A DNA stretch of 64,000 nucleotides. Origin: Candidatus Parcubacteria bacterium (GTDB lineage: Bacteria; Patescibacteriota; Patescibacteriia; Patescibacteriales; UBA12075). The position numbers were made by a program, and so were the translations under genes. A model generated the notes under the pieces. It worked only from the letters and a program-made list of their open reading frames with translations, was not told the DNA's origin and ran no database searches. Below, piece after piece: positions 41,714 through 59,957 of the stretch (positions are counted from its first letter, which is position 1; every line of letters starts with the position of its first letter). The stretch covers positions 618,537 through 682,536 of the forward strand of contig CAWFCE010000002.1 in the NCBI GenBank assembly GCA_963814275.1, given 5' to 3'.

Positions 41714-41742
41714 GCTATAATTAAAACAGGTAAAATTAAAAT

Positions 41743-44953: not shown

Positions 44954-45024
44954 GCGGGTGTAGTATAGTGGTAGTACAGGGCTCTCCAAAAGCTCTAGTG
45001 TGGGTTCGATTCCTACCACCCGTG
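44954..45024 (+). tRNA. tRNA-Trp (anticodon CCA), no encoded 3' CCA
   Basis: Acceptor GCGGGTG/CACCCGT (G1:U72). D-arm GTAT-AGTGGTA-GTAC. Anticodon arm GGGCT-CTCCAAA-AGCTC. T-arm GTGGG-TTCGATT-CCTAC. Discriminator G. Confidence 0.88.
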
Positions 45025-45029
45025 CGAAG

Positions 45030-45060
45030 AAAACTAGCTTAATATTAGGCTAGTTTTTTG
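45030..45060 (+). terminator. terminator hairpin after tRNA-Trp
   Basis: aaaactagc (45030-45038) pairs with gctagtttt (45049-45057), followed by a T-run. Confidence 0.7.
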
Positions 45061-45128
45061 GTTGAGGATCGAGGGAATCGAACTTTTTATTGATATTTGT
45101 TATAATTATTTATAATAACTATAAATAT

Positions 45129-45749
45129 ATGAAATTTTATTTATCATCCTATAAGCTTGGTGACAAAACAAACGAGCTAAAAGAAATAATCGCAAATAAA
45201 AATAAAAAAACCGCCTACATTTCTAACGCCTTAGATTTTTCTTCGGACTTGGAAAGGCGGGAGAAAAGTGAAGCGGCGGATATTGCGGACTTAGAAACTG
45301 TCGGCATGGCAATCGAAAAAGTAGATTTACGAGATTATTTTGGTAAACAAGAGGAGCTTAAAAAGAAATTGGATGAATATAGTGTGATTTGGGTAAGGGG
45401 TGGAAATGTTTTTGTATTAAGGCAAGCTATGAAGTTAAGCGGTTTCGACGAGATAATGACGCAACTCCTCAAAAAAGATGATATGATCTATGGTGGATAT
45501 AGCGCTGGTGTTTGTGTATTAGCACCAACACTTAGGGGCATTGATCTTGTTGATGATCCCAATATCCACCCATATCCAAAACAAACAGAAATTATCTGGG
45601 AAGGACTTAGTATTCTGGATTATTCAGTGGTCCCGCATTATGCTTCAAATCATTCTGAATCAGATGCGGTAAACAACGTAATCAAGTATATGGTTGATAA
45701 TAAGATATTGTTTAAAGCAATTAGTGATGGTGAAGTAATAATTTTTTAA
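45129..45749 (+). CDS. peptidase E-like (S51 family / class I amidotransferase-like)
   Basis: Start moved to ATG 45129 (MKFYLSSYKLG). VIWVRGGNVFVL and YGGYSAGVCVLAP (nucleophile Ser context). Confidence 0.72.
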   Translation: MKFYLSSYKLGDKTNELKEIIANKNKKTAYISNALDFSSDLERREKSEAADIADLETVGMAIEKVDLRDYFGKQEELKKKLDEYSVIWVRGGNVFVLRQAMKLSGFDEIMTQLLKKDDMIYGGYSAGVCVLAPTLRGIDLVDDPNIHPYPKQTEIIWEGLSILDYSVVPHYASNHSESDAVNNVIKYMVDNKILFKAISDGEVIIF

Positions 45750-45762
45750 TAATCAAACTAAA

Positions 45763-45890
45763 GCGCACAGTTGGCTAACATTCTTCAAAACTAGCTCAGG
45801 CACAGGCAGGGCAGTAACCCAATCAAAGGTTCGAAAGCTGTCCCTCCATGCGTGCGGATATAATCACAGCTAACGTTGGCTGTGATTTTT
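45763..45890 (+). repeat. decayed tRNA-like relic plus conserved hairpin (boundary 1)
   Basis: gcgcacagttggctaaca..ttcaaaac..ggttcgaaagctgtccctccatgcgtgcgg, then the hairpin aatcacagctaacgttggctgtgatt followed by ttt. Confidence 0.55.
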
Positions 45891-45936
45891 GTATGGGTGG
45901 TTGTGAAATCGAACATATTTTGTTAGTATTTGAGCT

Positions 45937-46338
45937 ATGAACAATATGGATGTAAATAATAAAATAATCAGACTATGCGTTGAAGGCTCAAAGGCTGAGT
46001 TTATGAAAAACACTGACAAAGCGATAAGATGTTATCAGCAGGCTTGGGATGAGCATCAGAATAATTATGAGGGTTGTATTGCCGCTCACTATTTGGCACG
46101 GTTTAAAGATGCTCCCGATGATATTTTTTATTGGAATAAAAAAGCGCTTGATTTGGCAAATTTGTCAGACAACGATGATGTAAAAGAATTTTTTCCATCA
46201 CTCTATGTAAACATGGGGAAGTCATATGAATTACTTGGTGATAAAAAGAACGCTGTGAAGTATTATGAAAAAGCAGAAAAATTCGGCATTAAACATAGTA
46301 ATAGTAATAAAAAAAAGATATCTAACCTCGGTATATAA
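45937..46338 (+). CDS. small TPR-like helical protein, conserved family of unknown function
   Basis: Pattern ...AIRCYQQAWDEH..AAHYLARFKD...WNKKALDLA...PSLYVNMGKSYELLGDKKNAVKYYEKA. Confidence 0.5.
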   Translation: MNNMDVNNKIIRLCVEGSKAEFMKNTDKAIRCYQQAWDEHQNNYEGCIAAHYLARFKDAPDDIFYWNKKALDLANLSDNDDVKEFFPSLYVNMGKSYELLGDKKNAVKYYEKAEKFGIKHSNSNKKKISNLGI

Positions 46339-46400
46339 AACAAATTATAAGGTTTTCCGGTGCGTCGCGTATTGTAAATTATCTTATAGCTGGAATAAAG

Positions 46401-46490
46401 ATTGGTTGTTTTCTTTTTAAAAAACAAGTTCGAATAAGAATAGGCACTCCGTGCCAGAAAAAAATAACTCTAGCCCCAGAGTTATTTTTT
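46401..46490 (+). repeat. decayed tRNA-Trp 3'-portion relic plus hairpin (boundary 2)
   Basis: attggttgttttctttttaaaaaacaagttcgaataagaataggcactccgtgcc, then the 13-bp stem aaaaaataactct / agagttatttttt. Confidence 0.55.
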
Positions 46491-46559
46491 GTTTTACTAT
46501 TTAGGATAATGGAATTTTTGTGTTATAATAAACATAATAAATATAAATATTATCTATTT

Positions 46560-48641
46560 ATGAAGAGCATTAAACTATACTTTGTTTTTGTCGCAATTTT
46601 TGTAATAGGCATTTACTTATTGCCATTAACTAGCGACGCCAATACAACCCCTTATCAATTATTGGATTCAGGATTAAATGTAAATTTTGGAGGTTATGGC
46701 AATATTAATTGTAATGTTAAGTGGGATGTAGCTAACGAAGGGCAGGGCAGTTATTTTCAAGAAAAATTCTATTACAAATATGGTGATGTGGTTACCAGTA
46801 AAAACGCGATCTGTGGCTGTATTCAAACTCCGGAAGCAGAATGCCATTGTCAGGGGACAATACAGAATCCAGTTCTTGGTGGTACTTATTATTATAAAAT
46901 TAAAGAGGATGGTGAATATCCGGAGGAATTCAAATATCTAGTTAACATACCGACCAAAATGTCAGATGACGCTGTCTCAATAGATGTAACTTCCAGTTCG
47001 GCTACAATTGAATGGACCACTGATGAAAGTTTGAGATCGAATGTTTTTTATTATCAGGTAGATAAAGACATAAACCAGGATTCAGTGCGTAATGATGAGT
47101 ATGCAAAAAATCATATTATTAAATTAGACGGCCTTAATCCTGGCACGGAATATGGGTTTACCGCAAATTCTATTGACGGAACCGGATATGGAGTAACAAG
47201 CGGTTTGTTGTTTTTTACTACCGAATCGGGTAATATATGTCATGATTCTGATGGTGGTCAAAATTATGAAGAAGCCGGTCAAGTGACTTTTGACGGCAGA
47301 GAGGATACGTCTTGGGGGAAAGATGATTGTGTTATTAGTAATGGGAATTATACGTATACCCCCACTACATATTGTCAGGGTAATAATTGTTATCAACGTG
47401 AAAAGGTGTGTGATAGCGAGGGTATAGATATTGTCGCGGAATATCATCCTTGTCCTGATGGCTGCACCAATGGTGCATGTCAGATAGATAATAAACAATC
47501 ATGCCAAGAGACTGATTCGGGAGACGATATATATACGAAAGGAAAAATAATTCTGTCGAATGGCTTTGAAATGGAAGATACTTGTGACCGATATAGTCTG
47601 CGTGAAACTTACTGTGTTAACGGTTCTTATGTCTATAGTACCAGAAATTGTAAATATGGTTGTGACGATGGCGCCTGTAAAAGCTCACTGCAAGATGAAG
47701 GTAATGACAATGACGAGCAATCAGATGATTCGGACGAGGTAATGTTGGAAGAGATAGAAATTGCCACTTGCATAGACGATGATGGAGGAAAGGACTATTC
47801 GCTTAGGGGCACTGTTAAATTCGGCTCAATAAAACATAGCGATGAATGCCAGGGAAATTATCTCGTAGAATATTGGTGTTCAAACAATCAGGTTTATAAT
47901 ACAGCCTACCGGTGCCCGGATGTTTGTATTGAAGGTGCCTGTACAGAGAATAAATCAAGTAACGATTCAAATGAAGCGGGAAGTAGTGATAACGGTCAGA
48001 TGGAATATTTGGAAGAAGGGAGCCGGGAAGGCGAAAACATTGATGTCGAACCAGAAAATGAAGTAGAAGGTGGGGCAAATATAAATATTAGTATAGAGCA
48101 AGTGCCAGAGCATGTAAATGGAAGAATATTGCTAAAAACGGAAGACGCGGGTAAGGCATATTACGTGAATCCGCAAAATAAAACAATGCATTATTTGGGG
48201 ACACCGGAAGATGCTTATTCGGTGATGCGTATTAATAGCACCGGTATAACCAATAATGATTTATATAAGATTCCTATCGGTGTTATATATGTAGAAGACG
48301 ATAGCGATTTTGATGGTTTGTCGGATAGTTTTGAAGTTTGTTTGGGTTTAAATCCTTACAGTAATGATTCTGACGGTGATGGTTATGGGGATGCAGATGA
48401 ATTGAATAAGGGATATAGTCCCTGGGGGAGTGGACGTCAAAATTTGGATTTAAATTTTTCGGATAGACAAAAAGGAAGGATATTTTTACAGATTGAAAAA
48501 GCTGGCGAAGCCTGGTATGTAAATCCCGAAGATAATAAGCGTTATTTTCTCGGCCGTCCGTCCGATGCTTTTAATGTTATGCGGAATTTGGGGTTGGGAA
48601 TATCCAATAAGGATTTCAAAGATTTAACCGGGGGTGAATAG
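46560..48641 (+). CDS. large secreted multidomain protein (FN3, three Cys-rich modules, Ca-binding Asp repeats, two copies of a ~50-aa GRIxLQ..GEAWYVxP domain)
   Basis: Start moved to ATG 46560 (MKSIKLYFVFVAIFVIG). FN3-like SATIEWTTDE..GTEYGF. Repeats of form CxDxDGGxxY...C...GAC x3. DSDFDGLSD..NDSDGDGYGDADE. GRILLKTEDAGKAYYVNP and GRIFLQIEKAGEAWYVNP. Confidence 0.75.
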   Translation: MKSIKLYFVFVAIFVIGIYLLPLTSDANTTPYQLLDSGLNVNFGGYGNINCNVKWDVANEGQGSYFQEKFYYKYGDVVTSKNAICGCIQTPEAECHCQGTIQNPVLGGTYYYKIKEDGEYPEEFKYLVNIPTKMSDDAVSIDVTSSSATIEWTTDESLRSNVFYYQVDKDINQDSVRNDEYAKNHIIKLDGLNPGTEYGFTANSIDGTGYGVTSGLLFFTTESGNICHDSDGGQNYEEAGQVTFDGREDTSWGKDDCVISNGNYTYTPTTYCQGNNCYQREKVCDSEGIDIVAEYHPCPDGCTNGACQIDNKQSCQETDSGDDIYTKGKIILSNGFEMEDTCDRYSLRETYCVNGSYVYSTRNCKYGCDDGACKSSLQDEGNDNDEQSDDSDEVMLEEIEIATCIDDDGGKDYSLRGTVKFGSIKHSDECQGNYLVEYWCSNNQVYNTAYRCPDVCIEGACTENKSSNDSNEAGSSDNGQMEYLEEGSREGENIDVEPENEVEGGANINISIEQVPEHVNGRILLKTEDAGKAYYVNPQNKTMHYLGTPEDAYSVMRINSTGITNNDLYKIPIGVIYVEDDSDFDGLSDSFEVCLGLNPYSNDSDGDGYGDADELNKGYSPWGSGRQNLDLNFSDRQKGRIFLQIEKAGEAWYVNPEDNKRYFLGRPSDAFNVMRNLGLGISNKDFKDLTGGE

Positions 48642-48790
48642 CAAGTTTCCACTTTATTATCATCCGCTCTCACGTGTTCCAGTAAAAATCAATCTTCCGT
48701 GCATGGGGAAATAAAACACAGGCTCAATAGGGCTTGTTTTTTGGAATAAATACTGATAAATTGATTATATTAAATATTAATAAGAATTTA

Positions 48791-50353
48791 ATGAATAAAA
48801 GAAATTTGATCATTGCGGCCAGTATACTCGTGTTTTTATTGTTAGGTTTCGCCCTAATCAAGAACAAACATAACAGTAACAACAATTTGGAGCAGACAGT
48901 TCTGGGGGATACGCTGGATATTTCCAAACAATATCTGAATTTGCGCCTTTTGACCGACAACACCTTGACCAAAGCATCAGAATATACGGATTACCGATCC
49001 TGGAACAAACAAATGGCCGCCTTGCTTAATATGTGGCAGGAGCTGGACAAAAGCGCCGGCGCCTTGGAAAGTCTGGCCGGTGGCTATGCCGGAGAAAAAG
49101 TCAGCTGGAATTTGCTTAATCCGGCGCAGGCTGTTACCACGGAAGAAATTAATAATGTTTTCGACAATGCCCCGGCCGGAAAAAAGATCAGAACTTTGGC
49201 GAAATTTTTAGGGGTGGATGCCAAGCGGGCCTATAAGATGCTGGAACAAACCCAAAACGAGGTCAAAGCCGATGCCTGGAATGAGGCCGGCGACGAATTC
49301 CAAAAATTGGAAACCACAGCTGTGGTGATAAAAGACGGCTGCAAGGTGGCCGGTTTTGTCGGCGGCGTGATAATTACCGGCGGTACCAGCGCCATTGCGG
49401 CCGGGTCAACCCTGTCTCAGGTGGCGGTGGTAGTGACCGGGGCTGATTTGGTTTTGGAAGTATCTGAAGACGCGGCCAACATCTCCCTGGGCAACAATAA
49501 TGACGCCGCCGCGCTTATCGGCGATATCAGGAAATTCACAGAGCCGGCGGCCGCGATCCTGGCCATAACGGATCTGCCGAACAATATCGCGACAAATTTC
49601 GATAAATTCAATGCCTTTATGTTCGGTTTGGACAATTTCCGCTCCACCGCCCAGGAAGGCAAAGTGATCGGCATTGCCTTGCCGGTTTACGATGGCAAGG
49701 AAATAAAGATCAATATTGATGGCGCGGTCATGGACCGGAGCGAACTGGAAGAGTGGCTGCAATCCCAGGGCTATGACGGTTATGAAGATTATTTGGCCGG
49801 TTTATTCGGCCCAGGCGCTGAAACAGCGGCGGAAGCCAGCGCCCCGGAGGAAGCAGCGCCTGCGGACGCGGCAGCGGCGGAAGCCAGCGCCCCGGAGGAA
49901 ACAGCAGGGGAGGCAGAAACCAAGGAAACCGCGGCGAATGACGGCAATTATCAAATCACCCCCGATACGGTTTACGGACAGGACGGCAAAGTCAGCATCA
50001 CCCTGGAAAGCCCTTTGGACCCTGTTTTCCAGAGAGGCCAGGCGAGGATGTGGGAGATAAAAGTAAACAATTGGGACGAGGAAACAGCCGGCCGAAGCTA
50101 TACTTGCGACTGGTCCTTCTATCTGGGCGGAGAACTTTACCGGGAGCAAGCGGATACCTGCCGCTTTACCAGCACCTTTATTGACAAAGCGGGCGATTTG
50201 ACGGCGGAGTTGAAGTTCAAAATTTTACAAGGGCGTTCTGTTTTTGACGAGAATGGCGAATATATCGATTATGTCAAAGACACGGTTGATACCCTGACTT
50301 TGACGCAGGAATACTCGGTCGAAGCGCCGGTGGATACTTATGTGCATCCGTAG
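48791..50353 (+). CDS. secreted/anchored protein of unknown function
   Basis: Start moved to ATG 48791 (MNKRNLIIAASILVFLLLGF). Internal 44-bp-spaced duplicate encoding AAEASAPEE. Confidence 0.6.
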   Translation: MNKRNLIIAASILVFLLLGFALIKNKHNSNNNLEQTVLGDTLDISKQYLNLRLLTDNTLTKASEYTDYRSWNKQMAALLNMWQELDKSAGALESLAGGYAGEKVSWNLLNPAQAVTTEEINNVFDNAPAGKKIRTLAKFLGVDAKRAYKMLEQTQNEVKADAWNEAGDEFQKLETTAVVIKDGCKVAGFVGGVIITGGTSAIAAGSTLSQVAVVVTGADLVLEVSEDAANISLGNNNDAAALIGDIRKFTEPAAAILAITDLPNNIATNFDKFNAFMFGLDNFRSTAQEGKVIGIALPVYDGKEIKINIDGAVMDRSELEEWLQSQGYDGYEDYLAGLFGPGAETAAEASAPEEAAPADAAAAEASAPEETAGEAETKETAANDGNYQITPDTVYGQDGKVSITLESPLDPVFQRGQARMWEIKVNNWDEETAGRSYTCDWSFYLGGELYREQADTCRFTSTFIDKAGDLTAELKFKILQGRSVFDENGEYIDYVKDTVDTLTLTQEYSVEAPVDTYVHP

Positions 50354-50413
50354 CAGCTTCGGGAAACAGAAAATTGCTAATATCGCGCGGGTAATGACTT
50401 TATAAATTAGAAA

Positions 50414-50437
50414 AGGTAACGTTACCTTAACGTTACC
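50414..50437. promoter_or_regulatory. palindromic candidate operator upstream of AbrB-like gene
   Basis: aggtaacgttacct is a perfect 14-bp palindrome (50414-50427). taacgttacc is repeated 11 bp later (50417-26 and 50428-37). Confidence 0.4.
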
Positions 50438-50451
50438 TCCGAAATAAACCT

Positions 50452-50607
50452 ATGAGAGAAGTCAGGAAGATAATTAAAAATGGGGCGGGGACTTATTATG
50501 TTTCTATTCCCAAAGAATATATGAAAGCTTTGAAATATAAGGACGGGCAGAAGGTGATGGTGGAGAAGCGGAAGAATGGGATATATATTTGTGACTGGGA
50601 GAAGTAG
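50452..50607 (+). CDS. AbrB/MazE/SpoVT-type DNA-binding protein (51 aa)
   Basis: Hand translation, absent from the track: MREVRKIIKNGAGTYYVSIPKEYMKALKYKDGQKVMVEKRKNGIYICDWEK. Fits the swapped-hairpin pattern (G..Y.V.IPK......L....G..V). Confidence 0.7.
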   Translation: MREVRKIIKNGAGTYYVSIPKEYMKALKYKDGQKVMVEKRKNGIYICDWEK

Positions 50608-50720
50608 GCGATATTCAGAGTGCCATCGTGGAGAACTGTGCAAATAATTGACTGATTAAAAAAAATATTATAAAGTTTTGGCATTGATTGCATATTATTA
50701 CCCCAAAAAAAGGAGCGATC

Positions 50721-50921
50721 ATGGCTGAGGACAAAAGCAGGTATATCGACATTCGATCTAACGGAGGAGGCGTAGTCGGCAGGGTTTTTGATGAAAATGG
50801 AGAAATAATACACGAACCCTTCAAAGGGCCGACAAGAAAAGCAATGTTAAAAAAGTTTAGGAGCAAATTCAATCCCAATCCATCAATAAATATAAAACGG
50901 CGCGGGAAAACTTATTTTTGA
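50721..50921 (+). CDS. small basic hypothetical protein
   Basis: ATG 50721 is preceded by aaaggag. MAEDKSRYIDIRSNGGGVVGRVFDENGEIIHEPFKGP... Confidence 0.45.
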   Translation: MAEDKSRYIDIRSNGGGVVGRVFDENGEIIHEPFKGPTRKAMLKKFRSKFNPNPSINIKRRGKTYF

Positions 50922-51133
50922 CATTGTTATTGTATCGCAAAAAACAAACTGCAGCTGGAATAAATACTACCCCCAGACATTAATCTGGGGGTTATTATTT
51001 CCAAAATAAAGAATCATCCTCCAGCAGCCGTGATTTTTGTATGACCAGAGAAAGATCGAATCTGATTCAAGTATATGTTACAATATAAAGTAGTATAGAA
51101 TTATTAACAAAATTAATTATTTATAAAAAAATT

Positions 51134-51292
51134 ATGTCAAAATATAAATGTACAATATGCGACTATATTTATGACGAAACGGCTGGCGATCCGGAACATG
51201 GGGTAGGGCCAGGCACGAAATTCCAAGATATTCCGGATACCTGGGTTTGCCCGCTCTGCGGCGTAGGCAAGGATAAATTTGTGAAGATTTAA
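51134..51292 (+). CDS. rubredoxin
   Basis: Hand translation, absent from the track: [52 protein letters not shown]. Two CxxC pairs in canonical rubredoxin spacing. Confidence 0.9.
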
Positions 51293-51306
51293 TAATAAGA
51301 ATATAA

Positions 51307-51393
51307 ATAGGTTGCTTTATTTCTAAAAAACAAGTTCGGATTAGAATTGGCACCTTGTGCGCATAAAGTCACAGCTAAAATTAGCTGTGACTT
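51307..51393 (+). repeat. decayed tRNA-Trp 3'-portion relic plus conserved hairpin (boundary 3)
   Basis: ataggttgctttatttctaaaaaacaagttcggattagaattggcaccttgtgcg, then aagtcacagctaaaattagctgtgactt. Confidence 0.55.
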
Positions 51394-51432
51394 TCGGTAT
51401 GGAACAATGCAGAAGCGAATCCGGATAACCGG

Positions 51433-51464
51433 AAAAATATATCAATAGCTATTGATATATTTTT
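51433..51464. promoter_or_regulatory. 32-bp perfect palindrome, candidate ArsR-family operator overlapping the promoter
   Basis: aaaaatatatcaatag|ctattgatatattttt. Possible -35 attgat (51451-56) and -10 tatact (51475-80), 18 nt apart. Located 26 nt upstream of the ArsR start. Confidence 0.5.
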
Positions 51465-51489
51465 GCTCAAGCAGTATACTTAATTTCAT

Positions 51490-51810
51490 ATGGTGGATAA
51501 ATGCTGCCTTCCCGGCAGTGTACAGCAAAAAGAACTCCTTAATCTTAAAAAAGATTTTGAGGTGTTAAACGATGTTAATCGGCTTCGTATTTTATGTTTG
51601 GTTAAAGCGCATAATGAGATTTGCGTGTGCGATATCCAAGAGTCGCTGGATCTGCCGCAAAATTTAGTGTCATATCATTTGGGCAAACTGAAAGACGCTG
51701 GTTTTGTAGAGTCGAGTAAGCAAGGCGCAAAGGTGATGTATCGCCAGGGGGTCAAAAAGGCAAAAGAATTTGAGAAAACTATTGTTAATTTATTAAATAA
51801 ACGCCCTTAA
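51490..51810 (+). CDS. ArsR/SmtB family metalloregulatory transcriptional repressor
   Basis: LNDVNRLRILCLV...EICVCDIQESLDLPQNLVSYHLGKLKDAGFV. Confidence 0.9.
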   Translation: MVDKCCLPGSVQQKELLNLKKDFEVLNDVNRLRILCLVKAHNEICVCDIQESLDLPQNLVSYHLGKLKDAGFVESSKQGAKVMYRQGVKKAKEFEKTIVNLLNKRP

Positions 51811-51862
51811 GGGAGTGCACCCCGGGAGTATTTCTTTCAGGGCGCCCTCAGGGCATAACATT

Positions 51863-52183
51863 ATGCGCAGTAAAACAAGTGCCTTTGGAGCACAAATACA
51901 AGTTTTAGGTTCGGGCTGCCCGACCTGCAAGCAGTTATTAGAAACTGTTAAAAAGGTGGCCAAAGATTTAAGCATTGACACGGAAGTAGAGTATATCACC
52001 GACGTCGCCAAGATGATCGAGATGGGCGTAATGCAGAGCCCGGTGCTGGCCGTTGACGGCAAGCCGGTTTTAACCGGCGGGGGTAAAGGCGAAGAGGAGA
52101 TAAAAGAAGCTATTTGCGGAGCGATGAAAACCATTGAAAATGAAAAGGGGCATGGTGGCTGTTCTTGCTGCGAGCATTGTTGA
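51863..52183 (+). CDS. thioredoxin-fold small redox-active disulfide protein with Cys-rich tail
   Basis: Start ATG 51863. IQVLGSGCPTCKQLLETVKKV...GVMQSPVLAVDGKPV. C-terminal GHGGCSCCEHC. Confidence 0.78.
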   Translation: MRSKTSAFGAQIQVLGSGCPTCKQLLETVKKVAKDLSIDTEVEYITDVAKMIEMGVMQSPVLAVDGKPVLTGGGKGEEEIKEAICGAMKTIENEKGHGGCSCCEHC

Positions 52184-52207
52184 TTTAATCAATCAAGTTA
52201 ACTGATT

Positions 52208-53179
52208 ATGGATATTTTTTACCCTTTAGAATTATTCGCTAAATGGATCACCTATGGCGTTTTTTCACTGCATGCCGGGCACTTGGCCGGAGCCTTGGAG
52301 TTTTTTGTTTATGATTCCTTGAAAATATTTGTTTTGATAATCTTCATTACTCATTTTATGAGTTTGTTAAGATTTTATTTACCGATCGAGAAATTGAAGG
52401 ACTTTCTAGCGGCGCACCGGATGTTCGGTCTGGACTATTTTTTGGCAACAGTGTTCGGGGCTCTTACCCCCTTTTGTTCTTGTTCGTCCATCCCTTTGTT
52501 TATTGGATTCATGGAAGCCCGAATTCCCCTGGGCGTTACTTTTGCATTTTTAATAACATCCCCCCTGGTTAATGAAATAGCTATCGGTTTGTTTATCGGT
52601 ATGTTTGGCATGAAGATTACCACCATATACGTTGTATCCGGTATTTTGATCGGTATGGTCGGAGGTTTTGTGATCGGTAAACTGAAGATGGAAAAATATG
52701 TAGCTGATTTTGTTTGGAATATCAAAGCTCAGAAATTAAGCAAGGCAGAGGCTAAAAAAGTTCCTTGGGGGGGAGTGTATAGAATAATTTCCCGAGAAGC
52801 TTGGGGGATCAGTAGAAAAATAATGTTGTATGTTCTGGCCGGGGTGGCTGTTGGCGGGTTGATTCATGGCTATGTCCCGGAAGGGTTTTTTGAAGTGTAT
52901 TTACGGAAGGCTGGCTTTTGGGGTGTCCCGCTGGCGGTAATTTTAGCTGTCCCGCTATATTCCAATGCCAGCGGCGTTATACCTATTATCCAGTCATTAA
53001 TAGCTAAAGGCGTGCCGCTGGGAACAGGCTTGGCTTTTATGATGGCTACCGTGGGACTTTCCTTGCCCGAAGCCATGATACTCAAGAAAGTGTTGAAATG
53101 GCAGTTGTTGGCTGCCTTTTTCGGGATCGTTGCCGTGGGCATAATTTTAATTGGCTATTTATTCAATATAATATTATAA
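52208..53179 (+). CDS. permease of the DUF318/ArsP-type family
   Basis: Polytopic. Signature LTPFCSCSSIPLFIGF. Typical partner of ArsR plus the small thioredoxin. Confidence 0.82.
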   Translation: MDIFYPLELFAKWITYGVFSLHAGHLAGALEFFVYDSLKIFVLIIFITHFMSLLRFYLPIEKLKDFLAAHRMFGLDYFLATVFGALTPFCSCSSIPLFIGFMEARIPLGVTFAFLITSPLVNEIAIGLFIGMFGMKITTIYVVSGILIGMVGGFVIGKLKMEKYVADFVWNIKAQKLSKAEAKKVPWGGVYRIISREAWGISRKIMLYVLAGVAVGGLIHGYVPEGFFEVYLRKAGFWGVPLAVILAVPLYSNASGVIPIIQSLIAKGVPLGTGLAFMMATVGLSLPEAMILKKVLKWQLLAAFFGIVAVGIILIGYLFNIIL

Positions 53180-53222
53180 CAAAAAATAAGCCGGCGCTTA
53201 TTTAAATCAATATATAAAAACC

Positions 53223-53735
53223 ATGAAAAAATACATTTTATTTTCTTTTTTATTTTTTGTTTCTTTATCCTTGGCTGGGTGTAGCCAGGGACAAGCAGAA
53301 GCGCAAATAAAAAATAACGATAAACTAAAGAACACTGCTCAAGCAGCCAATAAGCAAGTGAATAATTCTAACCAATATCCGGTTTCGAGCATTGAGACTG
53401 TGGCTGATAAGGTGCAGGTTTTTCTTTTTCATGGCATAGAGCGCTGTGCCACTTGCATTGCCATTGGTAAATTTGCCAATGAAACAGTTAATGAAAGATT
53501 TAAGAATGAGCTTCAGTCTGGTGAAATTGAATTCAGGGAAATTAATATAGACTTGCCGGCCAACAAAGAACTGGCTAGAAAATTTCAAGCCAGCGGGTCA
53601 GCTTTGTATCTCAATGGTATCAGGGGGAACGAGGACAACATTATGCAGGATACAAAGGTGTGGAGCTTAACAGGAAATCCGACGGCCTTCAAAGACTATC
53701 TTGAAGGGAGAATAAATACTTTGCTAGGAAGATAA
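53223..53735 (+). CDS. thioredoxin-like lipoprotein with CxxC
   Basis: Lipobox LSLAGC. FHGIERCATCIAIGKF. I recall similar proteins being named ArsF-family in ars-type clusters; unverified. Confidence 0.55.
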   Translation: MKKYILFSFLFFVSLSLAGCSQGQAEAQIKNNDKLKNTAQAANKQVNNSNQYPVSSIETVADKVQVFLFHGIERCATCIAIGKFANETVNERFKNELQSGEIEFREINIDLPANKELARKFQASGSALYLNGIRGNEDNIMQDTKVWSLTGNPTAFKDYLEGRINTLLGR

Positions 53736-53736
53736 A

Positions 53737-54456
53737 ATGGATTTTATAAATGCTTTAATGGATAGTTATAATATCCCGGTGTTTACGGCTTTCTTGCTTG
53801 GTGTTTTGACTTCAATCAGTCCTTGCCCTCTGGCCACCAATATTACGGCGGTCGCCTATATATCGAAAGAGCTGAAAACAATTAAGAACACCTTGTTCAA
53901 CGGGTTGTTCTATACCCTGGGCAGAGGGATTAGCTATACACTCCTGGCTACTTTGGTTTATTTCGGGATATCAAGTTTTCAGATTTCCAATATTTTTGAG
54001 GGTTGGGGAGATAAAGTGTTAGGACCAATATTGATTATTATCGGCTTAATAATGTTTGGAGCCATAAATATAAATATTGGGATCAAAAGCGAGAAGGTAG
54101 CGAGAATAAAAGAGTGGCTAGCGCAAAAAGGATATATTGGCTCACTTCTTTTGGGTGTTATTTTTGCCCTGGCATTTTGCCCGTATAGCGGGGTTTTATT
54201 TTTTGGAGTTTTGATACCGCTGGTATTGAGTTCGACCGAGGGCTTGCTGCTGGCACCGTTATTTGCGCTAGGCACCGGGTTGCCGGTTATTATATTTTCT
54301 TTTCTGATCGCTTTCTCAATGCAAAAAGTTAGCCAGGCTTTCCAAATAGTGCAAAAGCTTGAAAGAGTGATGAGATATATTGTGGCCAGCGTGTTTATAG
54401 CAACGGGACTATATTATTCGTATATTTTACTTAAATTCCTATTCCTTCTTTTTTAA
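53737..54456 (+). CDS. CcdA/DsbD-like transmembrane thiol-disulfide transfer protein
   Basis: Six TM segments. Cys-Pro motifs SISPCPLATN and LAFCPYSG in TM1 and TM4. Confidence 0.72.
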   Translation: MDFINALMDSYNIPVFTAFLLGVLTSISPCPLATNITAVAYISKELKTIKNTLFNGLFYTLGRGISYTLLATLVYFGISSFQISNIFEGWGDKVLGPILIIIGLIMFGAININIGIKSEKVARIKEWLAQKGYIGSLLLGVIFALAFCPYSGVLFFGVLIPLVLSSTEGLLLAPLFALGTGLPVIIFSFLIAFSMQKVSQAFQIVQKLERVMRYIVASVFIATGLYYSYILLKFLFLLF

Positions 54457-54523
54457 TTCAGGCAGGATAATATTTGTAGTATTCATATAATAAGCACTAA
54501 TATCGTAACCAATCCAGCAAAAT

Positions 54524-54553
54524 AAAATCACAGCTAATATTGGCTGTGATTTT
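54524..54553 (+). repeat. conserved hairpin (boundary 4)
   Basis: aaaatcacagctaatattggctgtgatttt. Preceded by gtaaccaatcc (compare gtaacccaatc at boundary 1). Followed by ..gcagcaagttcgaacc. Confidence 0.6.
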
Positions 54554-54627
54554 TGATCGGTGAGCAGCAAGTTCGAACCTAACCAGGTAATTTGCTATAA
54601 TTAAAGCATCATATTGAAAATAATTTT

Positions 54628-54994
54628 ATGATAATTGATTCACACGTACTATATCCCTATTTGAAAATAACGCAATTAACCCGGAAGATGCGTTTAAACT
54701 TCTTTTGGCGGATATGGTGAGGAACGAAGTCGGCTATGTAGTTGTAATTCCTGATAATTTTGAGAATTCGGACAGTATAGCCGATTTGGATAAAGCAATT
54801 CAATTGGCCGGAAAGTACAGCAATGTTTTTTCTTGGGAAGTCCACAAATTGTTCAAAGAGGTTCAAGCGAATTGGAAAAATACATAAAATTATTAAAAGG
54901 AGGAACTGTTAAAGGATTAAAATTTTTTCCAGGCCACGGTCCGTATTATCCCAGCGATGAAAGGTTGTTGCCATATTATGGAATATATTTATGA
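54628..54994 (+). pseudogene. amidohydrolase (TIM-barrel metal hydrolase) 5' fragment with frameshifts
   Basis: Frame 1: MIIDSHVLYPYL. Frame 2: ..NPEDAFKLLLADMVRNEVGYVVVIP..LAGKYSNVF. Frame 3: ..VKGLKFFPGHGPYYPSDERLLPYY. The C-terminal half is absent. Confidence 0.5.
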
Positions 54995-55033
54995 TAGTAT
55001 AATATTATATTTTGTTAAATATAAGAAATAATT

Positions 55034-55819
55034 ATGCCGAATAAAATTTATCATAAAATAGACAGTCAACAAAATACGCAAATAAAATTTCTTGAGAAAT
55101 TGAATTCAAAGAAATATCGTCTGGAATCAAAAAAATTCACAGTTGAAAATTTGACAATTATTTTGGACGCATTGAAAGATGGTTTTGATTTTGAGGCTTT
55201 ATTCGTTACGGAAGAATTTGCCTTGAAACATAAAAAAGAGTTGGCATATATCGAAAATAATTCTCATTTACGAAATTTTTATTTGATTGATTCCAAACTG
55301 AATAAGCATTATTCAAATCTGGATACCCCTTCCGGTATTACGGCGGTGTACGATATTATTGAAAAAAAGCTTGACGTTGCATCTGTGGTATATCTGAACG
55401 GGATCGGTGACCCGGGAAATCTCGGAGCAATTTTACGCAGCGCCTTGGCCTTTGGCTTTGCCAATATCGTCCTTGATGAAAATTGTGTCGATGCCCACAA
55501 TCCAAAAGTTGTAAACGCCGCCAAGGACGCAATTTTTAAATTGAACATTATTGAAGACAAAACCGGAAACTGGCTAAAGAGCACTGATTTGCCGATCTAT
55601 GGCACAAGTTCTCATTTCGGGTCAAATTTATCAGAATTTAAGCCAGCCAAGGCCTATTGCCTGGTTTTGGGTTGCGAGAGCCATGGGGTCAACTCGGAAA
55701 TCGTTAAAATGGCAATAGAAAATATAAAGATCGAGATGTCTTCCCGTATTGAATCTTTGAACGTGGCGGCATCAGCCGCAATTCTTTTTTATGAGCTTAA
55801 GCAAAAACAAATTAATTAG
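55034..55819 (+). CDS. TrmH/SpoU family RNA 2'-O-methyltransferase (RlmB-like)
   Basis: GIGDPGNLGAILRSALAFG, LVLGCESHGV, SLNVAASAAILFYE. Confidence 0.88.
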   Translation: MPNKIYHKIDSQQNTQIKFLEKLNSKKYRLESKKFTVENLTIILDALKDGFDFEALFVTEEFALKHKKELAYIENNSHLRNFYLIDSKLNKHYSNLDTPSGITAVYDIIEKKLDVASVVYLNGIGDPGNLGAILRSALAFGFANIVLDENCVDAHNPKVVNAAKDAIFKLNIIEDKTGNWLKSTDLPIYGTSSHFGSNLSEFKPAKAYCLVLGCESHGVNSEIVKMAIENIKIEMSSRIESLNVAASAAILFYELKQKQIN

Positions 55820-57395
55820 AATCGAGGAAGTAACCTTGAGGTTGGATGAAGATGAAGAAGTTTTAATAACAAAAATTTCTCAGATTTTGTTTTTGCCCGA
55901 ATCGGATATAATTAGTTTTAAAATTGCCAGAAAAAATATTGATTCACGTAAAAAGAATATTCTTTTTGTATATTCTTTGGATGTTTTAGTTAAAAATATC
56001 GAAGCAGTCAAAAAATGGGACACAGTCCATAGGGTCAGAATATATGAACCGTACGTATATCAAGAAAAGAATATTGTTAAAAAAAATAGTAAAAATATCG
56101 TAATCGTCGGTAGCGGTCCTTGCGGCTTGTTTTCCGCTTTAGTTTTGGCAAGGGCAGGATTTAAGCCCTTGATAATAGAGCGTGGCAAAGATATAGATTC
56201 ACGGGTAAAAGATGTTGAAAATTTTTTCCAGAAAAGCATTCTGAATCCCGGGTCAAATATTCAGTTCGGAGAAGGCGGTGCCGGAACATTTTCCGACGGG
56301 AAGCTTTATACCCTGATAAACGATCCTCGCTCAAAATATGTATTTTCCGAACTTGTTAAAGCCGGTGCTCCGGAAGAAATCATATGGAGCGGGACGCCTC
56401 ATATCGGTACGGATAAGTTGCGGGGAGTTATAAAAAATATTCGGAAAGAAATTATTGGATTGGGCGGGCGTATCAGGTTCGAAACATGTTTAACCGGGCT
56501 TGAAATCAAGAATAGCAAACTGGAAGGAATAGTTCTTGACGATAAAGAAAAAATTTCCGTTGGCAACCTTGTTTTAGCCATCGGCCATTCAGCCCGCGAT
56601 ACATACCAAATGCTATTTGATGCGCAACTTAAAATGACCCAAAAGAATTTTTCCATCGGACTTCGCATTGAACACAACTCTGAAATGATAAATAAATCCC
56701 AGTATGGAAATTCGTATAATCATCCGAAACTTGGTGCGGCGAAATATAAGCTTGTTCAGCATCTTAAAGATAAGCGATCGGTTTATACCTTTTGCATGTG
56801 TCCCGGCGGGTATGTAGTAGGGGCTGCTTCCGAAGAGGGCGGCGTGGTGGTGAACGGGATGAGTAAATATGCCCAAGACGGTGAAAATTCCAATAGCGCG
56901 TTATTGGTGCAGATAAAGTCAAGCGATTTCAGCTCGGATCATCCTTTGTCAGGAATTGAATTTCAGCGCCAGTGGGAAAGGCAAGCTTTCTCGGCTGGCG
57001 GCGGCAACTATTTTGCCCCCGCCCAACTGGTTGGCGATTTTTTAAGAAAAAGGGCATCAAGGGTTATTGGCAGCGTTAGGCCAAGCTATAAGCCGGGCGT
57101 GACAATGACTTCGCTTGAAGCTTGTCTGCCTGATTATGTGATTAAAAGTATCAGAGAGGCACTGCCTCTTTTCGATAAAAAGCTAAAAGGTTTTGCCCGG
57201 CCTGATGCTGTTTTAACGGGGGTAGAGACCAGGAGTTCATCGGCAGTGCGATTGGAGCGAAATGAAAAATGCGAATCAAGCATAGCCGGAGTCTATCCGG
57301 CCGGGGAAGGAGCGGGACATTCCGGAGGAATCGTTTCTTCGGCAATTGACGGCATGAGGGTGGCAGAAAAAATAATTGAAAAGTATTTAATATAA
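55791..57395 (+). CDS. FAD-dependent oxidoreductase (COG2509-type)
   Basis: N-terminal ..IARKNIDSRKK.. then IVIVGSGPCGLFSALVLARAGFKPLIIERG. C-terminal YPAGEGAGHSGGIVSSAIDG. Confidence 0.85.
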   Translation: MSLSKNKLIRIEEVTLRLDEDEEVLITKISQILFLPESDIISFKIARKNIDSRKKNILFVYSLDVLVKNIEAVKKWDTVHRVRIYEPYVYQEKNIVKKNSKNIVIVGSGPCGLFSALVLARAGFKPLIIERGKDIDSRVKDVENFFQKSILNPGSNIQFGEGGAGTFSDGKLYTLINDPRSKYVFSELVKAGAPEEIIWSGTPHIGTDKLRGVIKNIRKEIIGLGGRIRFETCLTGLEIKNSKLEGIVLDDKEKISVGNLVLAIGHSARDTYQMLFDAQLKMTQKNFSIGLRIEHNSEMINKSQYGNSYNHPKLGAAKYKLVQHLKDKRSVYTFCMCPGGYVVGAASEEGGVVVNGMSKYAQDGENSNSALLVQIKSSDFSSDHPLSGIEFQRQWERQAFSAGGGNYFAPAQLVGDFLRKRASRVIGSVRPSYKPGVTMTSLEACLPDYVIKSIREALPLFDKKLKGFARPDAVLTGVETRSSSAVRLERNEKCESSIAGVYPAGEGAGHSGGIVSSAIDGMRVAEKIIEKYLI

Positions 57396-57433
57396 TAGAT
57401 TCAAAGTTAAATTATCCTAATGCGGGCATTTAA

Positions 57434-57524
57434 ACAGGATACTTTATTTCCAAAAGACAAGTTCGAATGAGCAAAGGCGCCTCGTGCGAAAATAAAATCA
57501 GCCCCTTCGGGCTGAATTATTTTC
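57434..57524 (+). repeat. decayed tRNA-Trp 3'-portion relic plus hairpin (boundary 5)
   Basis: aacaggatactttatttccaaaagacaagttcgaatgagcaaaggcgcctcgtgcg, then tcagccc-cttc-gggctga followed by a T-rich run. Confidence 0.55.
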
Positions 57525-57668
57525 GTCTGGTGCGGCAAGTAGTGAAGACACCGTGACAGATGTGAAAAGATCAATTGCGTAGTAAAGGAATTTTCGTAGA
57601 GTATTATCAGAATCGTGGTTTGCTGATGGGGCGGAGCTCTTGACCAGTCGAATGATGCGGTCCGCCCC

Positions 57669-57689
57669 TTCGATTCCTACCACCCGTGC
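57669..57689 (+). repeat. perfect 21-nt direct repeat of the tRNA-Trp 3' end (attR-like)
   Basis: ttcgattcctaccacccgtgc is identical to 45005-45025. Confidence 0.95.
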
Positions 57690-57864
57690 AAAATAAATTT
57701 ACTACTGATATTAGCTGTTATTCTTGGTACGAAAGATAAATTCGAGCTAAATTAAAAAATCTGCTATAATAATACATGGAGATGAAGCCCTCCGTGGAAT
57801 AATTTCAAAACCGCTTTTAGCTAATGGCCTCTACTTGAAGTAGGGGTTTTTGTATCCAAAATTT

Positions 57865-58272
57865 ATGAACGGATTTGTTGAATATTTATTAAAGGTCATA
57901 GCCATCCTGTTCAAGATAGGATTGGTTTTGTTTGTTATCGGAGTAATCGCATATTTTTCCTTGTCCAGATACATCGATTACCGGATGAAACAAGTCCAGG
58001 AAAAGGAAGCCATTGAACGGGAACAGCAGGCGAAAGAGCGGGAGCAATACGAAAAAGAGTCGGCTGACAAACCCTCGCAGGAAGAGCTGGATAAAGAAGC
58101 GGCTTATTCAAGGTGTGTTAACAGCGCTTATAAAGAGTATAAAAAGAAGTACGATGAGGAATGTTCCAAGATCATTATGGACGGGGAATGCGTGGTGTCG
58201 CAGGAAAAACGCTATGAACTGGATGGAATCTATATGCACGATAAGGCGGATTGTGAAAAATTAAAGCAATAA
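57865..58272 (+). CDS. membrane-anchored coiled-coil protein with Cys-rich C-terminus
   Basis: ATG 57865. One TM, EREQQAKEREQYEKE, four Cys in the tail. Confidence 0.5.
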   Translation: MNGFVEYLLKVIAILFKIGLVLFVIGVIAYFSLSRYIDYRMKQVQEKEAIEREQQAKEREQYEKESADKPSQEELDKEAAYSRCVNSAYKEYKKKYDEECSKIIMDGECVVSQEKRYELDGIYMHDKADCEKLKQ

Positions 58273-58276
58273 AATT

Positions 58277-58489
58277 ATGTCAGATACGATCATGCTGGTT
58301 TTGGGGACAATCTTCGGCATTATCGCGTCAGCAATGGCTTACCTGATCACGTATGAAGAGTACAGGAAGCATCAGTTTCCCAAACAGAGATTAATAAAAA
58401 CTTCCCTGCAGTCAGCATTATTCACTTTTTTGTTTTTTCTGATCCTGTCGCTCATACTGGGTTATGTATTTTCTAATAACTTAAATTAA
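58277..58489 (+). CDS. small two-TM membrane protein
   Basis: ORF only. Starts 4 nt after the previous stop. Confidence 0.45.
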   Translation: MSDTIMLVLGTIFGIIASAMAYLITYEEYRKHQFPKQRLIKTSLQSALFTFLFFLILSLILGYVFSNNLN

Positions 58490-58616
58490 AATATGGCCAC
58501 AATAAAAAAATTACACGCTACAGTATCAAATTTCTTGGCTTTGTGATCAGCTAAAATTAAAGCCAAGGACTAGAAACAGAGACGGTTTTACTATATCGGC
58601 GAAAACTTTTGAGCAG

Positions 58617-59018
58617 ATGTATTATCGCACTTTATTAAATGGCGATATAGATAATTGCATTATTAATAAATCTTTGGATGAATTGGAATATGTGTCAGAC
58701 ATGGCATTTGTGGTTTTAATAAAGAAGAAATTGAAGATCAAATTTAACAACAACGAGTATATTGAAAAAATCCAATCAATACAAAATCTTGATGGCGGAT
58801 TCGGTTTTAACGACGGCAGTAGTTCTTTTTTGGAAAATACTTATTTAGCAGTTAAGGCATTATCGGCATTAAATCAAAAACCCCTTTTATTAAAAGAATG
58901 TGTTAGCCTTATTGAGGGTTGCCGTGTAAATAATGGGGGATACGGCAGGTCTACGTTGACCGTGCCAACTTTGCAAGCCACATATATGGCTATTAAGTGT
59001 TTGCAGATTTTAAATTAA
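58617..59018 (+). CDS. short protein with prenyltransferase/squalene-oxidase-type alpha-alpha repeats
   Basis: QNLDGGFGFNDGSSSFLENTYLAVKAL and NNGGYGRSTLTVPTLQATYMAIKCL. Only two repeats, so possibly a fragment. Confidence 0.45.
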   Translation: MYYRTLLNGDIDNCIINKSLDELEYVSDMAFVVLIKKKLKIKFNNNEYIEKIQSIQNLDGGFGFNDGSSSFLENTYLAVKALSALNQKPLLLKECVSLIEGCRVNNGGYGRSTLTVPTLQATYMAIKCLQILN

Positions 59019-59068
59019 TTTAAAAGTGATAAATTTTCAGTTTTTTTTCTTTTATGGAGTAGCAAAAC

Positions 59069-59099
59069 GGTTCGAACACTGTCCACGACCCCGTGCAAG
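59069..59099 (+). repeat. tRNA-like relic (boundary 7), same subfamily as boundary 1
   Basis: ggttcgaacactgtccacgaccccgtgcaag compared with 45828-45857 ggttcgaaagctgtccctccatgcgtgcgg. The blocks ggttcgaa, ctgtcc and cgtgc have identical spacing. Confidence 0.5.
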
Positions 59100-59157
59100 T
59101 TATCCTGGTGCGAAATTTATCACGGCGGATGCCGGGGCCCTCACCTCACGTTAACAA

Positions 59158-59193
59158 GGAAAAACTGCGGCCAGAAGCCGCAGTTTTAATATC
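59158..59193. terminator. bidirectional hairpin, copy 1
   Basis: gaaaaactgcggc-cagaa-gccgcagttttaatat. Confidence 0.7.
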
Positions 59194-59208: not shown

Positions 59209-59862
59209 TCAGACGCCCAGGACTCGCGAAGAATCGTAGAGGCGGGATTTTACCACCGGAATCGCAAGGGAGTATTTGGCCAGGAGGCTCTTGACCAGGT
59301 CGACGACCCAGTCTTCGGCGTAGGGGGCGACATAGATCCGGTCGATCACCCGGCCGATCCCGATCGGGATGAAAATGCCCTTGTAGCGGCATTTGTTCTT
59401 GTCCTGGCAATGGATGATCGCCCGCACTTCCTTTTCGTGCTCGAAACTTTTCCGCTTGTAGGCGAAAGGCTTGATCGGGTCGGAGCTGGGCTTTTTGATC
59501 AGCGAATAATCGATATAATTGATCTGCCCGAAGTGAATATCATGGCCGTCCGCTTCGGCGAATGATTCCGCGAGCTTGTCGTAGGTCGAGACGATCGCCA
59601 ACCCTTCGTTCTTTTGGGCATAAAGCTCCCACATGGCGGCCGACTCGTATTCGCTCTGGTGCCAGCAATTGAGGAAAGCTTGCTTGCGGACATGTTCGTG
59701 GTCGGTCAGGGGATAGGACCCTTCGTAGGGGTCGAGAAGCTGGTCGGCCCGGGCGAAGTAGAGCGAGGCGGAATTCAGGAGGGAGACGAATTTGGTGAAA
59801 TCGAGATATTTCCACAAAGGGATGTCGCGCCTTGATGGTGCCTGGAAATCGAGGTTAGTCAT
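59209..59862 (-). CDS. DUF2971-like protein
   Basis: PLWKYLDFTKFVSLLNSASLYFARADQLLDPYEG matches my recollection of the DUF2971 N-terminal pattern. The gene is GC-rich. Confidence 0.62.
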   Translation of the reverse strand: MTNLDFQAPSRRDIPLWKYLDFTKFVSLLNSASLYFARADQLLDPYEGSYPLTDHEHVRKQAFLNCWHQSEYESAAMWELYAQKNEGLAIVSTYDKLAESFAEADGHDIHFGQINYIDYSLIKKPSSDPIKPFAYKRKSFEHEKEVRAIIHCQDKNKCRYKGIFIPIGIGRVIDRIYVAPYAEDWVVDLVKSLLAKYSLAIPVVKSRLYDSSRVLGV

Positions 59863-59919
59863 TGCGGTAATGGATTGATTATGTTATCTATCCTAATTAT
59901 AACCTATTTTGAGAAAAAA

Positions 59920-59957
59920 ATGAAAAACTGCGGTTTGTGGCCGCAGTTTTAATATAG
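59920..59957. repeat. bidirectional hairpin, copy 2
   Basis: gaaaaactgcgg-tttgtg-gccgcagttttaatat. Same arms and flanks as copy 1 with a different loop. Confidence 0.7.

Follow-up and report, generated by a model that had tools for sequence, protein, structure and literature searches.

How does a row of accessory genes come to be assembled behind a single tRNA gene in bacteria of the candidate phyla radiation, whose tiny genomes hold few recognised mobile elements and whose acquisition of accessory genes is poorly understood? The question is raised by a 64-kb stretch of a Candidatus Parcubacteria genome (GenBank assembly GCA_963814275.1, contig CAWFCE010000002.1, positions 618,537 to 682,536; hereafter the window), in which genes are lined up behind the 3' end of a tRNA-Trp(CCA) gene with related short elements between them. 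A first-pass annotation had described these elements as decayed relics of the tRNA that divide the segment into units. We searched the window and compared it with loci of related genomes fetched for this purpose (labelled L001-L060). The division into co-oriented units with a recurring boundary was borne out, but the boundaries form a family of their own, and the supposed relics are merely the first part of longer modules. The feature is real and recurrent across the lineage, and it resembles the building of tRNA-anchored islands with an unusual, integron-like layout. Judged by the flanking AI-2E transporter, the host is placed among Falkowbacteria-like Patescibacteria of the candidate phyla radiation.

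The substantial open reading frames (ORFs) between 45130 and 59018 all lie on the plus strand, and the G+C content from 45 to 59 kb is below that of the upstream DNA. The genes form co-oriented cassettes of 0.6-5 kb with one conserved boundary module between neighbours. Seven modules (U0, U1, U2, U4, U5, U6 and U7), each of about 115-170 nt, are distributed across 44975-57748. From 5' to 3', a module consists of an element that we call X (about 85 nt, ending in CCGTGC), 8-10 A-rich bases, a hairpin, a T-run, about 20 nt, a (G)TTCGAAC-like box, about 18 nt, a TATAAT and the next gene; in U0 and U7 genuine tRNA sequence occupies the position of X. The individual features are given below, where R1 denotes a covariance model of the module with 115 positions, X-HMM a profile hidden Markov model (HMM) of X, and A1-A3, B1 and B2 the X copies already listed in the first-pass annotation as subfamilies A and B.

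44954-45025, plus strand: tRNA-Trp(CCA), anchor of the array (ARAGORN; Rfam tRNA model, 61.8 bits)
45026-45129, plus strand: downstream part of U0, with a hairpin at about 45033-45056, a AATCGAAC box at 45076-45083 and TATAAT at 45101-45106 (R1 92.6 bits over 44975-45084)
45777-45915, plus strand: U1, with X (B1; ending in CGTGC at 45855), hairpin TCACAGCTAACGTTGGCTGTGA at 45864-45885 (pattern with 0 occurrences expected by chance) and a AATCGAAC box (R1 93.1 bits; X-HMM E = 6e-8)
46373-46515, plus strand: U2, with X (A1) ending at 46454, a different hairpin (ATAACTCTAG...CAGAGTTAT) and a box (R1 91.9 bits; leave-one-out HMM E = 1.3e-10)
51283-51421, plus strand: U4, with X (A2) ending at 51360, hairpin TCACAGCTAAAATTAGCTGTGA at 51369-51390 and a GCGAATCC box (R1 95.8 bits)
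54444-54579, plus strand: U5, the boundary between an ArsR module and a SpoU/FAD module, with a decayed C-type X that has lost CGTGC, a perfect hairpin at 54528-54549 and a GTTCGAAC box (R1 83.6 bits; X-HMM E = 2.8e-6; leave-window-out E = 0.06; 66% identity to the X of L029)
57407-57548, plus strand: U6, with X (A3) ending at 57487 and hairpin TCAGCCCCTTCGGGCTGA at 57498-57515, found by terminator scan (R1 81.6 bits; leave-one-out HMM E = 6e-10)
57628-57748, plus strand: U7, attR-like, with a GC-rich stem (ggggcgga...tccgcccc), a 21-nt copy of the tRNA-Trp 3' end, a decayed hairpin and a box (R1 70 bits; tRNA-Trp HMM E = 0.05; also recovered in the repeat search as family D13)
59015-59100, plus strand: terminal X (B2), with no hairpin/box module after it and a separate terminator at 59161-59187 (X-HMM E = 1.3e-6; leave-window-out E = 0.004, the top match in the window; 63% identity to the X of L030; not detected by R1)

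The seven R1 matches start at 44975, 45800, 46399, 51305, 54465, 57432 and 57630 and score 70-96 bits. With filters off, R1 found no further significant match on the module strand of the window, and the other strong matches were solely minus-strand echoes of the palindromic hairpins. Two candidate additional units, at 48647-48767 and about 50935-51102, reached 13.7 and 7.8 bits in this search, which is not significant, and are regarded as possible decayed remnants only. The elements listed by the first-pass annotation are real, but the modules at 54465-54579 and 57630-57748 had been overlooked. The terminal X, which lacks a hairpin module, looks as expected for a final attR beside the native flank.

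According to the terminator scan, the hairpin adjacent to X is a perfect terminator-type palindrome with a T-run after it. The pattern TCACAGCTAAnnTTrGCTGTGA occurs three times, always inside the island, where none is expected by chance, and the 22-nt hairpin of U4 is also present in the second unit of L002. The commonest hairpin stands directly 3' of the native tRNA-Trp in L023, L026 and L034 (an ATACAGC variant in L003), which identifies it as the usual tRNA-Trp terminator of the lineage. Downstream of it, the TCGAAC-like box is a possible -35 element, and the TATAAT promoter could drive the next cassette. Since a sigma-70 consensus scan returned promoters no more numerous than in shuffled sequence, this assignment is based on the aligned TATAAT and box alone.

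The nature of X was addressed by comparing it with tRNA-Trp in both directions. Its likeness to the tRNA is limited to the GTTCGAA box and the terminal CCGTGC, and TTC and CGTGC lie 21 nt apart in every X copy versus 16 nt in tRNA-Trp, a constant excess of 5 nt. An HMM of 12 tRNA-Trp genes recovers every tRNA and the short copy at 57669 and matches no X at E <= 10, while HMMs of X match no tRNA. Pairwise alignment of tRNA-Trp with A1, A2, A3, B1 and B2 yields z = -0.5 to 2.2, a tiled Smith-Waterman search of the window with tRNA-Trp recovers only the tRNA itself and 57669, and neither ARAGORN nor the Rfam tRNA model reports any X copy. Because the Smith-Waterman tiles, the shuffles and the two-way HMMs are all non-significant, the idea that the elements are decayed tRNA-Trp copies was abandoned. 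Neither sequence homology nor tRNA fold or geometry was found in X as a partial tRNA or pseudo-tRNA, homology being confined to 57669-57689. The near full-length pseudo-tRNA that had been proposed at 45763 was likewise negative with ARAGORN and the Rfam tRNA model (45763-45857; fold z = -1.8).

What the X copies share instead is their own geometry. The pattern TTC[GT][ACG]A-N15-CGTGC has 13 matches in 425 kb (window plus loci), all of them in arrays and 11 of them distinct (L024 duplicates L002), and every other spacing from 8 to 23 between the TTC box and CGTGC has 0-1 matches in the same DNA. Independent decay of tRNA copies would not keep one non-tRNA spacing, which argues for X as a coherent family. 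Within it, subfamily A (46401, 51307 and 57434) proved to be a true three-copy family that aligns without gaps over about 71 nt (leave-one-out nhmmer E = 1e-10 to 3e-12; pairwise z = 13-21; none of 2000 shuffles reaches the score); its copies are window-specific and 65-69% alike. The two members of subfamily B resemble each other only weakly (z = 5.1; score reached by 3 of 2000 shuffles), and both belong to the fixed-geometry family found across genomes. A profile made from other genomes' copies only places B2, U5, U1 and A1 among its five top window matches, with individually marginal E values of 0.004, 0.06, 0.8 and 1.6. Many X copies carry a TAYAAT-like box at a constant position, as read from the alignment. 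A structured RNA or attC-like fold for X was considered and rejected: RNAalifold finds 0 conserved base pairs in 13 copies, single copies fold no better than shuffles, and Rfam returns no match at E <= 10.

The sole true partial copy of tRNA-Trp in the array lies at 57669-57689 (TTCGATTCCTACCACCCGTGC). Together with 45005-45025 it forms an exact 21-nt direct repeat that reaches from the T-loop to the 3' end of the tRNA and encloses 12.7 kb; 0 such repeats are expected by chance. On sequence grounds, this repeat is the classical attL/attR signature. As is known for tRNA-targeted islands, the inserted DNA lies at the 3' end of the gene and the 3' part of the tRNA is directly repeated at the far boundary, both here and in L008, where an 8-kb defence island ends in a 12-13-nt exact repeat of the tRNA-Trp 3' end.

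A comparable arrangement was observed at another tRNA gene. In the window at 41474-41720, part of the 3' end of tRNA-Ser(GGA) is repeated as TTCGAATCCCTgTCCCACCGC (41649-41669), about 88 nt past the gene and preceded by ggaggggcttCCGCCCC. Its left junction, CCGCCCC running into TTCGA, is identical to that of the tRNA-Trp repeat (57660-57669), and L058 shows a similar transition from a GC-stem to TTCGATTCC at about 8900-8925. These shared junctions suggest a single family of T-loop-targeting elements, with a tiny scar at tRNA-Ser.

The gene content delimited by the modules is listed below.

45130-45749, plus strand: cassette 1, peptidase S51, peptidase E-like (Pfam PF03575, E = 3e-19)
45937-46338, plus strand: cassette 2, TPR protein (Pfam TPR families)
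46509-51292, plus strand: cassette 3, fn3 protein (710 aa), 539-aa protein, AbrB/MazE-like protein, 77-aa ORF and rubredoxin (Pfam)
51490-54456, plus strand: cassette 4, ArsR, thioredoxin-like protein, ArsP permease, 170-aa ORF and DsbD_2 (Pfam), with the palindromic operator atatcaatagctattgatata upstream
54580-57395, plus strand: cassette 5, short remnant ORFs, SpoU/TrmH-type methylase (55034-55819) and FAD-dependent protein (55791-57395) (Pfam)
57769-59018, plus strand: last unit, two small membrane ORFs and a prenyltransferase-repeat ORF (Pfam) behind a fluoride riboswitch (57769-57840; Rfam RF01734 at 41.8 bits, which exceeds the gathering score)

An amidohydrolase fragment, previously named as part of the fifth unit, finds no support in Pfam. 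Homologues of the TPR protein of cassette 2 occur elsewhere in ordinary contexts without X or tRNA.

In the relatives, the gene order of a 124-aa lipoprotein-like ORF (p124), the AI-2E transporter and tRNA-Trp, as found upstream of the array here, is kept, and the genes downstream of the array are non-syntenic within the DNA fetched. Modules outside the training sets of R1 and the X-HMM follow tRNA-Trp in L002 (two further units; R1 59 and 27 bits), L003, L007, L028 and, truncated, L034; they are also present in L029, L030, L058 (at least six units in 10 kb) and L059 (three units), where the tRNA lies beyond the contig. The genes between the units differ in every genome examined and include Fic/RhuM, a 331-aa phosphotransferase-like protein, a K+ channel, an HD-domain protein, an L,D-transpeptidase, restriction-modification, RelB/YafQ and CreD. 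Two of the cassettes are met again beside other boundary types. The gene for the 331-aa protein is cassette 2 of L002, with a C-type X behind it, and the last island gene of L008, where the tRNA-type repeat comes next (63% amino-acid identity); a C-type X stands in front of it in L059, and in L060 its context is without units. The ArsR module lies behind an A-type X in the window and behind a C-type X in L029, where ArsR and the thioredoxin-like protein recur, with hairpin, box and operator common to both. These comparisons support the view that the units vary independently between related genomes.

Several further observations were made in the loci of relatives. In L004 (8225-8400), tRNA-Trp and a degenerate copy of its 3' end (cttCATCCCaTGCca) are separated by an insert of about 150 nt, rich in G+C, with no cassette array after it; this is possibly a miniature insertion or a scar at the tRNA-Trp site. 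The array of L058 contains, at 8451-9130, a fragment of an IS200-type Y1 transposase and two partial 3' ends of non-Trp tRNAs, one per strand, and from these foreign pieces arrays seem to gather debris of several kinds of element. Contigs of the metagenome-assembled genomes (MAGs) L009 and L010 end at or just past tRNA-Trp. More generally, contigs of L001, L009, L010 and L035 (short-read assembly of the same strain and MAGs of relatives) end near tRNA-Trp or the modules, so that arrays are probably under-represented or fragmented in MAGs.

X is conserved far beyond the surrounding DNA. Between genomes, the AI-2E proteins are 54-63% identical, their four-fold degenerate sites are saturated (9-38% identical) and the spacer upstream of tRNA-Trp is unalignable (z <= 1.7), whereas the C-type X is 82-89% identical among L002, L003 and L059, beside unrelated genes. 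The hairpin arms are identical across genomes with a variable loop centre, and distant genomes share exact stretches of 14-22 nt in the hairpin region. To remain so much alike, the modules must either be under strong constraint or have spread horizontally in recent times. At the same time, X and the sequence downstream of it do not travel together: in a comparison of 14 units, the identity of X showed no correlation with that of the downstream module (Mantel r = -0.15). U2 and U4, for example, share 74% of X and 7% of the downstream part, and U5 and the second unit of L002 share 80% of the downstream part and 19% of X. The two parts of the module thus assort independently, which implies that they recombine at about the CGTGC junction.

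How could such an array arise? Our preferred explanation, in which we place slightly less than even confidence, is a variable gene array at tRNA-Trp, formed as integrase-less cassettes accreted in tandem through a recombinase acting in trans. Each step of growth would have been a site-specific recombination event at the 3' end of tRNA-Trp, with the crossover at or directly after CCGTGC, the same bases as those of the tRNA end; the exact crossover base within this proposed site is putative. X would be the left arm of an att-like site on the incoming DNA, and the hairpin and promoter its right arm. Because the cassettes are without integrase, the recombinase would have to be provided in trans, as for cis-mobilizable elements (CIMEs) or satellite elements. 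A separate, classical integration of the T-loop type would have left the 21-nt direct repeat.

A number of results weigh against such a mechanism. Pfam searches revealed no tyrosine or serine recombinase in the island ORFs, in short ORFs, in the gap at 57500-57668 or in 20 other ORFs of the window; none was found in the arrays of L002, L003, L008, L058 and L059 or among the precomputed domains of L058-L060, and integrase remnants were absent from the window genes scanned and the arrays examined. The viral contigs, phage genomes and plasmids searched are devoid of X: a pattern scan of IMG/VR gave chance matches only (0 for a CGTGC-plus-hairpin pattern), and BLAST against phages and plasmids gave no match. 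The hairpins vary between modules with compensating changes, which fits a terminator and is, taken alone, no sign of a recombinase site. X cannot act as a functional 3' end of a tRNA, which excludes a crossover upstream of CCGTGC. Finally, exact-protein look-ups for the same strain recovered only short Logan contigs (one run, ERR11571143), which break near the module and tRNA positions and are uninformative on the presence or absence of cassettes.

The main rival, which we consider rather unlikely, is homologous exchange without a dedicated recombinase. Here, modules and tRNA would serve as portable homology arms, and RecA-type crossovers would insert, replace or delete cassettes from Falkowbacteria DNA taken up by the cell. 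Such a process resembles the minimal mobile elements of Neisseria. It would account for the lack of an integrase in about 11 arrays, for the identity of 14-22 nt in the hairpin region of distant genomes and for the shuffling of X types and downstream modules, and components of a type IV pilus (PilM, PilC-like, prepilin peptidase) could serve uptake. However, exact runs shared by modules within a genome measure just 10-12 nt, which is short for RecA. Homologous exchange also leaves unexplained why an invariant CCGTGC is kept at a fixed distance from the T-loop-like box, why exact repeats of tRNA 3' ends begin at TTCGA here, at tRNA-Ser and in L008, and where the first module copies came from. 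The pilus genes of the window, encoding PilM, a T2SS-F/PilC-like protein and a prepilin peptidase, are located at 3407-10163 and 29582-30448 and represent a possible DNA-uptake apparatus.

Alternatively, X and the hairpin could mainly be a functional RNA or regulatory element, i.e. a conserved 3' untranslated region, a small RNA with a -10-like TAYAAT box of its own or an insulator made of terminator and promoter, and their recurrence between genes would reflect selection for expression control instead of recombination machinery. To this view, which would be compatible with either recombination model, we assign a low probability. On the coding strand, a stop codon always precedes X and an intrinsic terminator always follows it, its sequence is much better conserved than neutral DNA, its TAYAAT-like box keeps its position in many copies, and a terminator and a promoter are part of every module. 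Against a role as RNA stand the missing conserved base pairs, the shuffle-like folds and the lack of an Rfam match described above; moreover, the copies are confined to arrays, with none at other genes of the window, and the anchoring at a tRNA would be left without explanation.

It is also conceivable, and was likewise raised at first pass, that the stretch from the 3' half of tRNA-Trp through the spacer was duplicated in tandem in situ and that the copies then decayed neutrally to dead, immobile relics. We regard this as highly improbable: some local duplication is plausible given the window-specific, mutually similar A-type copies, and U5 and perhaps 48647-48767 and about 50935-51102 look decayed, but X has no statistical match to tRNA, independent decay would not preserve the common +5-nt geometry, and the C-type X has stayed alike beside unrelated genes in genomes that show saturated synonymous sites and otherwise unalignable intergenic DNA.

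Accretion of cassettes by a recombinase acting in trans also has to be seen against known systems, of which the first-pass annotation was aware of none; precedents of several parts exist (PMC3146451, 10.1101/2020.12.28.424599, PMC5704250). The ssrA islands of Dehalococcoides are tandem segments with 20-bp repeats of the 3' end of the RNA gene and insertion at the T-loop; about 85 bp around each repeat are additionally conserved and include a motif that cannot be aligned to the RNA gene itself, and although most islands carry a module with a serine recombinase (DsiB), some are without an integration module and were proposed to be cis-mobilizable (PMC3146451). The array described here is similar in its tandem segments downstream of one t(m)RNA gene and in its conserved non-tRNA boundary motif. 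It differs in that no array carries a recombinase, cassettes of a single gene are possible, most boundaries are not true tRNA copies and each boundary brings a terminator and a promoter. The tycheposon islands of Prochlorococcus are found next to tRNA genes of a streamlined host, where serial integration pushes older elements outward; they contain scattered partial tRNAs, degenerate elements, adaptive and defence cargo, tyrosine recombinases and fragmented integrases (10.1101/2020.12.28.424599). A streamlined genome and a tRNA-adjacent island are common to both, whereas recombinases and integrase fragments are lacking here, replication genes are absent from the island ORFs according to Pfam, and the boundaries other than U7 are not partial tRNAs. 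CIMEs are integrase-less, att-flanked segments that accumulate in tandem at a target gene's 3' end and use the recombinase of another element; they are decay products of large integrative and conjugative elements (ICEs) or integrative and mobilizable elements (IMEs), usually with few copies per site (PMC5704250). With its seven modules and terminal X at one site, and with similar arrays in L002, L058 and L059, the present locus is like CIME accretion in its integrase-less tandem segments bounded by att-like sequence, and unlike it in that the small cassettes number up to seven or more and neither ICE or IME genes nor a conjugation context are present.

The likeness to integrons lies in co-oriented, often single-gene cassettes with a recurring end element, one fixed anchor and a content that varies between relatives. 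As an integron in the strict sense, the array does not qualify: no IntI is located by the anchor, which is a tRNA gene, X is conserved in sequence and not in structure, with no attC-like fold, and each cassette has its own promoter and terminator in place of a shared Pc. Xer-dependent elements such as the pdif modules of Acinetobacter plasmids are likewise small, bounded by short sites and moved by a host recombinase in trans, and their pdif sites alternate in orientation. Like a dif site (about 28-30 bp with a 6-bp spacer), the commonest hairpin, AAAATCACAGCT-AANNTT-AGCTGTGATTTT, combines invariant arms with a variable centre, and only by this resemblance might it be a Xer binding site. In contrast to pdif, the sites here are direct, and the hairpins of other modules are unrelated and show compensating changes, as do plain terminators.

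A broader proposal, which we put forward as speculative and unlikely, is that Falkowbacteria, and perhaps other lineages of the candidate phyla radiation, have built an integron-like cassette capture from different parts. The 3' end of tRNA-Trp would be the fixed site, X-CCGTGC the cassette-borne site, recognised as double-stranded DNA, and the recombinase would be chromosomal and encoded elsewhere, while every cassette would bring its own terminator and promoter. In this manner, lineages otherwise devoid of plasmids and conjugative elements could exchange individual genes with roles in defence, in detoxification or at the cell surface. In the literature, no report of such arrays in genomes of the candidate phyla radiation was found.

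A hotspot at one tRNA across the lineage, marked by a searchable module and carrying genes for defence, toxin-antitoxin, metal and redox functions and the cell surface, offers a handle on gene flow in these bacteria. The X model or the fixed-spacing motif can be used to map arrays across MAGs, aiding the search for a co-occurring recombinase, and such mapping could explain why MAG contigs frequently break at tRNA-Trp. Should a trans-acting recombinase be found, it would represent a second integron-like solution to cassette capture; otherwise, the arrays would point to cassette exchange via portable homology arms.

Within the last unit and just beyond it, additional features were noted. The two membrane ORFs behind the fluoride riboswitch (140 and 70 aa; 57769-58489 including the riboswitch) show no significant Pfam match to CrcB or any other family, and they may be an unrecognised fluoride-responsive pair of membrane proteins. 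Past the array, a direct repeat of 40 nt (83% identical; 59153-59192 and 59916-59955), which includes a terminator-like hairpin (AAAACTGCGGCC...GCCGCAGTTTT), encloses a DUF2971 gene on the minus strand (59209-59862), possibly another small insertion. A coding repeat of about 99 nt with 72% identity links the C-terminal region of the 710-aa fn3 protein of cassette 3 (48503-48601) with 60210-60308 and 60435-60490, which belong to the N-terminal part of a Gmad2-domain protein encoded beyond the island; a match to this peptide repeat is also present in L006.

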